From a virus, in UHGV virus genome UHGV-2202118: a DNA stretch of 64,000 nucleotides; one strand, written 5' to 3'. A program made the translations under genes and the position numbers. This document shows positions 47,199-64,000 of this stretch, piece after piece (the first letter of the stretch is position 1; each line of letters begins with the position of its first letter). Below the pieces are notes generated by a model. It saw only the letters and a list, made by a program, of their open reading frames with translations, was not told the origin of the DNA and did not search any database.

Positions 47199-48815
47199 TC
47201 AACGTCTAAGCCCCTCATATGGGTTTCCCCTCACTAAGTCTGTGTGAGCGCCCATTGATGGTGGCTTGAATAATTTAACTTCGTTAAGACTGTTGAAAGC
47301 ATCACTGGTAGCATCCACTTGGTCATCTTTAGTTTTGCCATCACCACAAAAGCCTTCAAGCTCTTGAAAGTAAGCTTCATTCCAACTACCTCTCAAGACT
47401 TTTACAAGTCCAGCTTCAGAAGCAGCAGAAAATCCCGCAAAGCGGGTAACTTTATCTTTATTTGTTGGTTTGGCTCTTGCTCGATAACCTTTCTCGGCAA
47501 GTTTCCTGATGAGGGATGTTGCGTAGGATTTACCAGCAGCGCCTGGGTCTTGAGGGATAAAAATACCAGTTCGCTTACCGTCACTTTCAGCAGTCAAATT
47601 AATTTGTGTTTCGACTCCAGAGGGTCTATCTCTAAATCTTACTACATCAATGATATAATAGCAACCGTCTTTTTTAGATTTACCCATCTTAACACCTGCT
47701 GTCCAGTCTGGATTAGGGTTAATCTCAGATGGTAAAGTTGCTGCTAAGTCCCATGCTCTAACATCAAATACATCTTCTGGGAGTGAATCAACAATTTCAC
47801 ACCATTGTCTTTGCCAATAGTTTGAACCTTCTGCACGAGCCTTCCAGTTACCGAAACGAAGTCTTGCAACGTTTAAAGGAGTGTTGTTTTCCAGCTTACC
47901 ACGGTACTTAGGCTCTAAGAAGTCAAGGATTGGGTTATCATCAATCGTACCAGAAATAAAGGTGTATGTTTGAGGAATCTCAAGGGGGAACATTTCAAGA
48001 ATCTTGTCTCTCTCCCAATCAGAAACCATCACGCCATCGTTCATTACATACCAACGAATACGACCACATTTTTCAGGGTCTGGGTAGCCTTCTTCATCTA
48101 AGAATGGCTCTACCCAATCGTAAATAAAGTGGTCTCTGTCTGGGTTCATGGAAATCTTCATGTATGAATCGCCTTCAGCACCAGAACGTAGACGGGTTTG
48201 TAGGTATGAAATCTGTGAAGCAGAGAAGTGTGTACCTTCGTCAAAGTAAATAGCTGAGTATTCAATACCCTGATGACCTTCAGCGTGCTTTTCAAGTTCT
48301 AGGTAGGTAAACTTGATAGTTGCCCCAGAAGGGAATGTGATAGTCATTTTCTGCTCGTGAGGAATCCCACCAAACTTACCAAATAGTTTCTTTGCAGCAG
48401 GCCATAAACCACCTTGTAACTGTGTTGTATTTCGACGGAAATATACAGCATTATAGTTAGGGTCTTCAATAAATCTTAAAGAGTCCATTAACAATGCGGC
48501 AGTCTTACCAGCACCAGCAGCACCACCATAGAGAACCAAGTCAGCATTAGTATTTAAAAAGACCTCTTGAGAACCCGGCTGAGGGGCTACATAGTTCTTA
48601 TCAGTCATCAATTTAAAGATAAGGCGAACTTGGTCTGGTGTGTATCTTAATAAAGTCAGAATTTGAGTTGGAAGGAATTTAGAGGGGTCTTTACCGAATG
48701 ATTTAATAATTTCTTTTACTTCATCAGAAAGCCCCAACTCTCCAGCTAGGACTTTCCTAACATCTTCCACTCGCTTCTGCTTAACAGCATTTAAGTCCAT
48801 TAAGCGCCTCCGCAA
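47199..48815 (-). CDS. terminase large subunit
   Basis: 538 aa; Walker A LYGGAAGAGKTAAL; acidic nuclease-type C-terminal half. Confidence 0.85.
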   Translation of the reverse strand: MRRRLMDLNAVKQKRVEDVRKVLAGELGLSDEVKEIIKSFGKDPSKFLPTQILTLLRYTPDQVRLIFKLMTDKNYVAPQPGSQEVFLNTNADLVLYGGAAGAGKTAALLMDSLRFIEDPNYNAVYFRRNTTQLQGGLWPAAKKLFGKFGGIPHEQKMTITFPSGATIKFTYLELEKHAEGHQGIEYSAIYFDEGTHFSASQISYLQTRLRSGAEGDSYMKISMNPDRDHFIYDWVEPFLDEEGYPDPEKCGRIRWYVMNDGVMVSDWERDKILEMFPLEIPQTYTFISGTIDDNPILDFLEPKYRGKLENNTPLNVARLRFGNWKARAEGSNYWQRQWCEIVDSLPEDVFDVRAWDLAATLPSEINPNPDWTAGVKMGKSKKDGCYYIIDVVRFRDRPSGVETQINLTAESDGKRTGIFIPQDPGAAGKSYATSLIRKLAEKGYRARAKPTNKDKVTRFAGFSAASEAGLVKVLRGSWNEAYFQELEGFCGDGKTKDDQVDATSDAFNSLNEVKLFKPPSMGAHTDLVRGNPYEGLRR

Positions 48816-48821
48816 ATAGAA

Positions 48822-49022
48822 TTATTCAGAGTCTGTAGCAGTCTCTTCTTTCTTAACTTCGAACTTTGCATCAACAGCATCAAGAAGTGCATCCATAGAT
48901 GCTTCTTTAATATCAATACCTGTTGCTACAGATAATCTATCTGCAATTGCCATGATAGTGTTCTGCATAAATTCTAGCTTTTTATTAGCTTCATAAAGTT
49001 CTTTGTAAACGGTCTCACTCAT
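48822..49022 (-). CDS. small protein upstream of terminase (possible small terminase subunit)
   Basis: 66-aa ORF immediately upstream of the large terminase. Confidence 0.3.
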   Translation of the reverse strand: MSETVYKELYEANKKLEFMQNTIMAIADRLSVATGIDIKEASMDALLDAVDAKFEVKKEETATDSE

Positions 49023-61912: not shown

Positions 61913-62474
61913 TGGTGTGATAGATATGGAAAAAGATAACTTAAAAGAAGTTGAAGGTAACTACTTAGTACTTGACTGGAAGGATGTTCGGGAAGCACTC
62001 TCCGAAGAAAATCTTGACTGGTTCGAACAAATTATCTTTGCAGTACGGCATAACCGAGAAGTTGAAAATGGTAAAGAGCCACTTGAAGGAATCTTTGTAG
62101 AAAGGTCTTATCCATTCTATGAAGACACTTTGCAGAAAGTTAAGATGTACTTTAAACAGAAGAACCGTAAAGTGGTCACTATGGTATCTCTTGGTGGACA
62201 GAGTATGTCTGTGATGGAAGATATCAACCCTAAGAGACCGAGTAAAGGTGTTTGTATAAAAATCACAGGACATGAAGAGTATATCTCAGTGGCTGACTTT
62301 AGTGTGTTCTGTAATGGTTCTGCTGTCTTTAATGGGTTTCACTATGATATCCGAGTGTACCCAATCAAGGGAGATGATATCATGATGCAGATATTCGATA
62401 ACAATAATGGGTTCACTCATTTTTACCAGACAACTAAGTCATCATTGAAAACAGTTCTGGAAACACTGATTTAA
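61851..62474 (+). CDS. hypothetical protein
   Basis: 207-aa ORF, last gene before the non-coding repeat region; followed by hairpin + T-run at about 62485-62512. Confidence 0.4.
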   Translation: MTSSRTIVINSQYQNIKFYDNGVIDMEKDNLKEVEGNYLVLDWKDVREALSEENLDWFEQIIFAVRHNREVENGKEPLEGIFVERSYPFYEDTLQKVKMYFKQKNRKVVTMVSLGGQSMSVMEDINPKRPSKGVCIKITGHEEYISVADFSVFCNGSAVFNGFHYDIRVYPIKGDDIMMQIFDNNNGFTHFYQTTKSSLKTVLETLI

Positions 62475-63079
62475 AATATCTTAAGAGCCTCCTTAATTGG
62501 GGGCTTTTTAATTTTTATAAAATTTTATCGGTTGTCCCAACCTCTGGGTCACCATCATATGTGAATAAAATATCTATCCTTCTTAACAACCTTCTTAATC
62601 TTACTCTCTATATAGTTATATAGTACTATATAGTATCTTAGTAACTATCTAGTGGTCTCAATAGCCCTCTGTATAGCCCTTCTAAATAGCCATCTAAACA
62701 CTCTTCTAACAAGCCTTCTTAACAACCTATACAATCACCTTAACCATCCCTCTACACCCTCTTAGAAGCTCCTATACACCTCTTAATTTCTAGGTAAGCT
62801 ATGACACTCTCTATAGGTGTTCACTAGGTACTACTAAGCCTCTATATAAACTGTTTTAACAAACTTAACAGGAATATCTTCACAGACCTTATCTCACAAG
62901 GTCTAACACGGTACTAACAAGGTATCTTATAAGCCTGTTATTACCTGTATTTTTAAAAGACTGTATAGGTAATTATTCAGAATCTTAAAATTTTTATAAA
63001 ATAGGACTATCAAGTCATTTTTTAGGGTCTTTGAAGGAACTGAAAAATATCTGTAGAAGATGTATATCTGCTTGGTAGC

Positions 63080-63350
63080 CCTTAACAGCTCCCTTACAAG
63101 TACTTTGCAAAATTTTAAAATATCCTTAACAATCTCTTAACAGCTCTCACATCTTCTTAACAACTCTTCATAGGTCTTAACAGATTCTTAACAGAACTAA
63201 CAAGGGCTTAACAGTTTCTTAACAGTTGATACATGGGCTTTACAGAATCTTAACAGATGACTAACAAGAGCTAACAAGTTAATTTTTAAGAGTTATCTTG
63301 TTAAGATAATTAACAAGTTTCTAACAAGTGTTTAATCTTTTTAACAAGCT
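63080..63350. repeat. iteron array of (C)TTAACAG / CTAACAAG motifs
   Basis: At least 15 copies in about 270 bp, many spaced 10-11 bp apart; further copies at 62860-62930 and 63570-63700. Confidence 0.7.
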
Positions 63351-63590
63351 ATTAACATGGTCACTATCTCTTTCTTATCGTTCCCTCTCTTTCTTAATGA
63401 TTCTTTAAATAGCCCTTTTAAAAGCTCTCTATAGCTCCTTGTAAGCTCTTTTAAACCTCTTCCTAGTAATTACACCCCAACTATACAGACACCTATTTAT
63501 AAGGCTTTACAGGAGCTTTTAAGGCTATGTCAAAGACTCTTACAAAGCTTTTACATGGTATTAACAGAGATTTAACAAGGGACTAACAAG

Positions 63591-63740
63591 TTGCTAACAA
63601 GCATAACTATGTAGGGATTGTTAAGAATTTGTTAAGGGGACTAACAAGTTGCTAACAAGCATAACTATGTAGGGATTGTTAAGAATTTGTTAAGAAGATG
63701 TTAAGGGATTGTTAAGAATTTGTTAAGGGGACTAGCATTT
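63591..63740. repeat. 58-bp direct repeat, about 2.6 copies
   Basis: GACTAACAAGTTGCTAACAAGCATAACTATGTAGGGATTGTTAAGAATTTGTTAAGG repeated at 63591 and 63649 with a partial third copy. Confidence 0.75.
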
Positions 63741-64000
63741 ACGTAACTTTATAGCCTTTTTTACGTAACTTTATAGCCTTTTTTACGTAACTTTATAGCC
63801 TTTTTTACGTAACTTTGAAGTAACTTTATAGCCCCTATAACATGCTTTTTAGTGACTAGCATTTACGTAACTTTATAGCCTTTTTTACGTAACTTTATAG
63901 CCTTTTTTACGTAACTTTGAAGTAACTTTATAGCCTTTTTTACGTAACTTTGAAGTAACTTTATAGCCTTTTTTACGTAACTTTGAAGTAACTTTATAGC
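63741..64000. repeat. 22-bp tandem repeat array (ACGTAACTTTATAGCCTTTTTT) with higher-order periodicity, running to the window edge
   Basis: At least 9 copies plus variant ACGTAACTTTGAAGTAACTTTATAGCC; higher-order unit starting GACTAGCATTT repeats at 63741 and about 63866. Confidence 0.75.

Follow-up and report, generated by a model that had tools for sequence, protein, structure and literature searches.

The gene-free end of a Felixounavirus genome carries a dense array of a short motif inside and beside the predicted direct terminal repeat (DTR) of the phage. The motif has the consensus (C/T)(C/T)TAACA(A/G), and its 7-9-bp core recurs at 11-bp intervals, with about 30 copies arranged in two opposed blocks. 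With a probability of about 0.5, we read this array as a lattice, phased at one unit per helical turn, that the terminase would recognise in order to cut the concatemer junction. Positions given here are those of the window, that is, the whole 64,000-nt stretch of DNA that was analysed. The preliminary description of this stretch had offered a replication origin, a partition site or a packaging/terminus region as the function of the repeats; the position of the array inside and beside the DTR speaks for the last of these, while origin and partition were left unsupported.

The segment 62400-64000 matched 256 phage records; with few exceptions these are Felixounavirus or close relatives of it, with Escherichia, Salmonella, Shigella and Citrobacter as hosts, and by these matches the window is the genome of a Felixounavirus (Felix O1-like phage). 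The last + strand ORF stops at 62474, and the ORF list of the window holds no ORF of at least 40 aa that overlaps 62475-64000, in agreement with the non-coding status that had been assigned to the array region. Indels among relatives in this tail are not multiples of three, and annotated relatives have a gene-free stretch of ~1.6 kb between two gene blocks that converge on it. The + strand gene block is closed by an intrinsic terminator on the same strand (62483-62508; a 10-bp stem followed by a T run), and a permissive Rfam search of 62300-64000 returned sub-threshold chance matches only. At the scale of the window, GC skew tracks gene orientation. Some database records annotate 'hypothetical protein' ORFs of 25-54 aa (L006, 1368-1663; L003, 219-715; L012, 957-1578) that sit inside the DTR or its non-coding flanks. 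Given the indels noted above and the lack of conservation of these ORFs, such calls are likely to be spurious.

Between 62860 and 63360, where more than 15 repeat copies had been claimed, the + strand holds 19 TAACA cores, 17 of which fit YTAACAR, so the claim stands; exact TTAACAG occurs eight times and exact CTAACAAG five times. The array is real at this location but is not confined to it, with more units at 62584-62915, 63562-63657 and 63619-63727. Over the whole ORF-free tail (62475-64000), we counted 30 TAACA and nine inverted TGTTA. The density of TAACA is 19.7 per kb in the tail versus 1.55 per kb in the other 62.5 kb, an enrichment of ~13-fold. CTTAACA occurs 46 times in the window compared with 16.6 ± 3.8 times in dinucleotide-preserving shuffles, none of which (0/100) reached 46; the last 1.5 kb holds 20 of the 46 copies, and the frequency elsewhere in the genome is about what chance would give. 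The motif, enriched here and at chance level elsewhere, is therefore a signal specific to the terminus rather than a general regulatory word.

The spacing of the units is regular. Within 63072-63702, 11 of the 21 gaps between neighbours are exactly 11 bp, the others being mostly 9, 10, 20 or 31 bp, and a period of ~10-10.25 bp fits the placement best overall (R = 0.68, with the 99.9th percentile of random placements at 0.53). Taken together, the 11-bp gaps and the global period of ~10.2 bp indicate that the sites lie on one face of the helix, as the preliminary description had proposed from a phasing of 10-11 bp.

The repeated hexamer TTAACA is also one mismatch from the -35 hexamer TTGACA, and a promoter scan gave 11 sigma-70-like sites, for the most part built on TTAACA, versus 5.6 ± 2.4 in shuffles. 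This could suggest an array of promoter-like sites or a decoy for RNA polymerase. However, all of the sites score only 9/12, none has a good -10 element, and neither a gene nor an Rfam RNA lies downstream. The excess of promoter-like sites is explained by the hexamer being both repeated and similar to the -35 element, and we consider a promoter or decoy role very unlikely.

The ends of related genomes place the array with respect to the DTR. Short terminal repeats were inferred for Felix O1 by Whichard et al. (PMC3185647), and Bardina et al. (2016) mapped the ends of UAB_Phi87 by Bal31 digestion and run-off sequencing and printed a DTR of 608 bp (PMC4837284, Fig. S1). In reverse complement, the UAB_Phi87 DTR aligns along its whole length to 63072-~63702 of the window, in an alignment that used 590 of the 608 nt and whose right end is uncertain by about 10-30 nt. 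Because only 590 of the 608 nt were available, the right boundary was set from four records in which the repeat is duplicated. Citrobacter phage HP1 (Mooglevirus) has an annotated repeat of 570 bp, identical at both record ends, and exact terminal duplicates are present in Pr103Blw (581 bp), Ro111lw (613 bp) and SLAM_phiST56 (611 bp); the DTRs of Pr103Blw and Ro111lw had been derived with PhageTerm (PMC8303462, PMC6454146). All four repeats start with GCCCCCTTAACA and end with TTAAGGGCTACC, and the boundaries common to them, GGTAGCCCTTAACA...TGTTAAGGGGGC, map to 63074 and 63732. The records of H12 and ECOH1 begin at the same point or within a few nt of it, and the 'DTR' annotation of UAB_69 maps to 63072-63734. 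Two other records were rejected. The UAB_Phi87 record JN225449.1, considered for end mapping, is not opened at the DTR, and the Yersinia phage P778 record, supposed to start at the DTR, does not do so.

In the SLAM_phiST56 record, a flanking sequence (...CAGCACCT) directly abuts the first base of the repeat. We take positions 1-50 of this record (PP948675.1; L014), AAGGTTAA...CAGCACCT, to be a Nanopore barcode/adapter flank and not phage DNA. The same record is labelled circular despite the 611-bp repeat at both of its ends.

In the relatives, the same sequence therefore stands at both physical ends with fixed, sequence-specific boundaries, and the window has a single homologous copy. By homology, we predict a DTR of ~659 bp at 63074-63732 (± 2 nt), which reads GGTAGCCCTTAACA...TGTTAAGGGGAC in the orientation of the window and would put the termini of this phage at ~63074 and ~63732. 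The repeat should stand at both ends of the virion DNA and once in a concatemer or an assembly. An exact 58-bp duplication and two additional 11-bp units make it longer than its counterparts in relatives.

The array as first reported corresponds to the left part of the DTR and spills partly into the left flank. Its main direct block (63083-63357, + strand) consists of 16 YTAACAR units found by motif scan at 63083, 63127, 63138, 63158, 63178, 63189, 63198, 63209, 63220, 63251, 63262, 63272, 63311, 63322, 63342 and 63353, with a single inverted copy (- strand) within the block at 63299. The central part of the DTR (63358-63561, ~200 bp) is free of TAACA units; it contains words of the CTTTACA/CTTTTAA type and has the invariant TTAACATGGTCAC at its left edge. 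A second direct block of six YTAACAR units at 11-bp spacing occupies 63562-63657 (63562, 63573, 63584, 63595, 63642 and 63653; + strand), and an inverted block of seven CTTAACA occupies 63619-63727 (63619, 63630, 63677, 63688, 63699, 63710 and 63721; - strand), with 11 bp within each run; relatives carry three copies there. The sign of the GC skew flips near 63550, in line with this dyad layout.

The two motif blocks are mirror images about the DTR. Both face inward, and the outermost unit is set in from the DTR boundary by 9 nt at the left and by 7 nt at the right, so that clusters of the repeated word stand beside the predicted cleavage sites. Because the outer units at the two boundaries are opposed, each virion end would read inward G(N1-4)CCCTTAACA. 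The symmetry is imperfect, and the left flank has seven motif copies beyond the DTR boundary.

The 58-bp tandem duplication (63579-63694, + strand; 100% identical copies) is specific to this phage, the sequence being present as a single copy in relatives (nine aligned). It adds two direct and two inverted units, and the copy number of the lattice therefore varies between isolates. Differences of this kind among close relatives, seen in the duplication, in the 11-bp units and in a 22/33-bp array to the right of the DTR, would fit a functionless by-product of slippage or unequal recombination in the terminal repeat. Conservation argues against such an origin. In an alignment of nine genomes from three genera (Felixounavirus, Suspvirus and Mooglevirus; 75-95% identity), unit positions and irregular gaps are kept across the three genera, and the gaps 11, 20, 20, 11, 9, 11, 11 are found in these genera and in a distant Erwinia phage. 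Furthermore, conservation is significantly higher in the TAACA cores than in the spacers (0.954 versus 0.820, Mann-Whitney p = 1e-8, in an alignment where the aligner will tend to pair repeated words), and the units are interspersed with unique spacers rather than being simple tandem copies. We therefore regard the by-product reading as barely tenable.

The match to the Erwinia phage, Prophecy, is a single 75-nt BLAST match of 75% identity. Prophecy nevertheless keeps the boundary word, as TGTATATCTaCTTaGT, followed by motif units whose spacing is 22, 11, 20, 20, 20, 9, 11, 11, compared with 44, 11, 20, 20, 11, 9, 11, 11 here, and it has inverted TGTTA units at the other side, too. Thus, by their gaps, their core conservation and a spacing that extends to the Erwinia phage, the units are in helical phase and under selection. 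Because the geometry is conserved, simple slippage is disfavoured, and a protein complex that reads the lattice is favoured.

The longest invariant block of the region, 27 nt that are identical in the nine genomes, spans 63061-63087 (+ strand) and straddles the left DTR boundary. It reads TGTATATCTGC/TT/GGTAGCCCTTAACA, i.e., TGTATATCTGC/TTGGTAGCCCTTAACA, where slashes mark a cut at 63071/72 or 63073/74. We consider this block a candidate cleavage or recognition site. The word at the right boundary, TGTTAAGGGGGC/TAG..TTTACGTAACTTT, is likewise well conserved. Alternatively, recognition could depend on the invariant boundary words by themselves, the lattice serving another purpose.

Both flanks of the DTR contain repeats of their own. 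The unique, non-coding left flank (62475-63073) holds the seven TAACA copies (62584, 62707, 62720, 62857, 62866, 62904 and 62915; + strand, motif scan) together with other repeat families. One of these, distinct from TAACA, consists of three CTATATAG units at ~10-bp spacing (62608-62635, in the region 62605-62650), and another of 12-bp repeats of the CTTCTAAATAGCC type (62656-62724). TCTCTATATAG, which lies in this short-repeat region, is unchanged in all nine genomes. Two copies of the near-palindrome TTTTATAAAAT, 479 bp apart (62513-62523 and 62992-63002), are the sole exact copies in the 64-kb window, and both fall within blocks that are invariant across three genera; a binding site and a phage-specific promoter element are possibilities for this element. 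The invariant blocks of the left flank (nine genomes, three genera) are 62515-62525, 62605-62615, 62896-62910 and 62986-63004. The unique right flank (63733-64000, + strand) starts with TAGCATTTACGTAACTTT, which is conserved across genera, and continues as a 22/33-bp tandem array of TTTACGTAACTTTATAGCC with at least 13 half-units in an 11-bp register that runs off the end of the window. An 8-bp palindrome, TTACGTAA, is part of the array. In relatives there are 2-3 copies, so that this phage shows an expansion.

Features of the flanks bear on whether the region might be a replication origin, in which the phased repeats would be binding sites for an initiator beside an easily melted AT-rich stretch, in or next to the terminal repeat. 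Many phased direct repeats are present, in a gene-free region between converging transcription units, and AT-rich stretches at 62920-63040 and 63240-63360, with a GC content of 0.21-0.25 in a genome that is itself 38-40% GC, adjoin the array. In addition, the two invariant near-palindromes occur only here in the window. Because the AT-rich stretches adjoin the array, we keep an origin in view as a possibility, if an unlikely one. Usual iterons have 3-8 units of 17-22 bp. The dimensions here are different, with cores of 7-9 bp per 11 bp, ~30 copies plus nine inverted ones and two opposed blocks, and the outer copies are at fixed distances from the DTR cut sites. No initiator-like gene was found in or beside the region, where nine neighbouring or candidate proteins gave no replication domain by Pfam and PHROG, and our literature search found no paper that links this region to an origin in the genus. 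The term iteron, which the preliminary description had applied to the array, is thus not supported in its origin sense, given the unit size, the copy number, the opposed blocks and the lack of an initiator gene nearby. A partition site is implausible because the phage is lytic and has no par genes in the flanks examined; none are present in the annotated relative, either.

Another possibility, still improbable although we rate it somewhat above an origin, is that the lattice handles the DNA ends rather than serving terminase recognition. A phage or host protein bound to it would protect the incoming ends against exonucleases, pair the terminal repeats for concatemer formation or recombination, or organise the DNA that is packaged last or ejected first. 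The motif is confined to the terminal region, both virion ends show it in the same inward orientation, and passage of the DNA through the portal begins or finishes with the non-coding ends. A copy number that varies by the 58-bp duplication and the two extra 11-bp units would also fit a lattice that tolerates changes in dosage. However, no candidate protein was found for such a role, nor any precedent in the literature searched, and the fixed 7-9-bp distances and the invariant boundary words are more simply explained by the positioning of cleavage.

We therefore return to the reading of the array as a lattice for the terminase. From the location of the array, the boundaries in relatives, the conservation of motif and spacing, and the mirror symmetry, we infer a protein that binds, a likely binder and a mode of cutting as follows. 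One face of the DNA along the lattices would be coated by a DNA-binding protein of the phage, which is probably the part of the terminase responsible for recognition, and the coated lattices would mark the junction in replicated concatemers. The bound protein would then place the nuclease of the large terminase on the boundaries, TGTATATCTGC/TTGGTAGCCC at the left and TGTTAAGGGGRC/TAGCATTTACGTAAC at the right. Duplication of the repeat would follow, as it does in T7-type packaging, such that each packaged genome carries the DTR at both ends. Duplication of the terminal repeat at packaging is established for phages with short DTRs. The binding of an oligomerising protein, which the preliminary description had suggested, receives indirect support from cores that are better conserved than spacers, from the retained spacing and from the mirror-image blocks, but our searches did not identify the protein.

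A domain search assigned the ORF at 47199-48815 (- strand) to a T4-type large terminase (Terminase_6N/6C). The Pharokka annotation, in the stretch inspected, names no small terminase subunit, and in each of the 40 records listed the ORF immediately upstream of the large terminase is labelled 'hypothetical'. In the window, the ORF upstream of the large terminase (48822-49022) encodes 66 aa, is conserved and falls in PHROG 4397, a family without functional assignment; a distant relative has an ORF of 71 aa at the same position, with a marginal match (27% identity, E = 0.03). The large terminase probably starts at the ATG at 48800 and not at the TTG at 48815. Its N-terminus (48615-48800, - strand) is predicted to form a 62-residue, four-helix domain (pLDDT ~95) that is confined to this clade and is absent from the nearest shorter homologues, which are 57% identical. 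For the 66-aa ORF and the 62-aa domain, family and fold searches yielded nothing informative. When a database was searched with the N-terminal 98 residues of the large terminase, only two fragments came back, and a PDB sequence search for small terminase candidates yielded no match. We suggest very tentatively, and consider it doubtful, that the lattice is the reading surface of a terminase that works without a classical small subunit, the binder being either the 62-residue N-terminal domain or the product of the tiny upstream ORF.

A scan of IMG/VR for three phased TTAACA returned many matches, and some unrelated contigs among them had true arrays. Four such contigs (169 kb, 28 kb, 17 kb and 12 kb) contain dense, 11-bp-phased (C/A/T)TTAACA followed by inverted TGTTAAG, at 7179-7560 of L076, 4179-4560 of L092, 595-900 of L069 and 10871-11060 of L078. 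These arrays share the convergent layout of the Felixounavirus DTR array, and they are not at contig ends. Pfam gave no informative match for the ORFs next to them. A further, equally doubtful possibility is that the TAACA word and its lattice are a system common to unrelated phages, in which a shared family of binding proteins might take part.

Felix O1-like phages are widely used in Salmonella and E. coli typing, in biocontrol and in therapy, and they are now being engineered. The present analysis narrows the putative packaging signal to the lattice, with its mirror symmetry and helical phasing, and the two invariant words at the boundaries. Footprinting, plasmid-transduction assays and safe genome design can be directed at these defined parts, and the parts list shows which non-coding bases to spare and where to open assemblies. 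The presence of the array in the DTR accounts for assemblies of these phages breaking or varying there, and the same analysis explains why the small 'hypothetical' ORFs that records place inside the repeat are unlikely to be genuine.

The DTR itself was already known in the genus, whereas the motif lattice appears to be new with respect to the literature that we searched. The DTRs of UAB_Phi87, Pr103Blw, Ro111lw, UAB_69 and HP1 are homologous to the one described here, share its boundary words and align from 63072/74 to 63702/32; relative to UAB_Phi87 and the other relatives, the copy in this phage is the longer one, at ~659 bp. The papers on these relatives give the length and sequence of the repeat only and do not describe a phased motif, a mirror layout or conservation, and a literature search for the motif returned nothing relevant.

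Among better-characterised phages, one parallel is the T7/T3 junction, where, as Dunn and Studier in 1983 and Chung and Hinkle in 1990 are said to have described, a 160-bp terminal repeat is flanked by arrays of short repeats and pac sequences are reportedly needed for packaging. The present region resembles T7/T3 in its short, exact DTR, its non-permuted ends and its short-repeat arrays at the junction, and presumably also in mechanism, with site-specific cuts at both repeat boundaries and duplication of the repeat. Unlike T7/T3, the sequences are unrelated, the large subunit is T4-like (Terminase_6N/6C), the repeats are mostly inside the DTR, and no small terminase subunit was recognised. 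The pac site of P1, according to what is reported of the work of Sternberg and Coulby, consists of repeats of the hexamer TGATCA/G, four on one side of the cut and three on the other. As in P1, two clusters of a short repeated word flank the region of terminase cleavage. However, P1 packages by headful from a single cut under the control of Dam methylation, whereas two fixed cuts ~660 bp apart are predicted here, and the units here are many more and contain no GATC.

Phage lambda cosB consists of the R1-R3 sites and an IHF bend, and in SPP1 the pacL and pacR boxes are bound by the small terminase. The likeness to these systems lies in repeated, phased sites next to a nicking site; theirs assemble a wrapped complex that positions the nuclease. 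They differ from the present array in having fewer and longer units and a known small-subunit binder. Finally, parC of plasmid R1 comprises two blocks of five 11-bp repeats that are coated by ParR. R1 parC is a partition centromere beside parM/parR, whereas the phage described here is lytic, has no par genes and has blocks that are tied to the genome ends. Nevertheless, the two have in common an 11-bp lattice in two blocks, which is suited to cooperative coating of one DNA face, and parC can thus serve as a model for how the array might be read.
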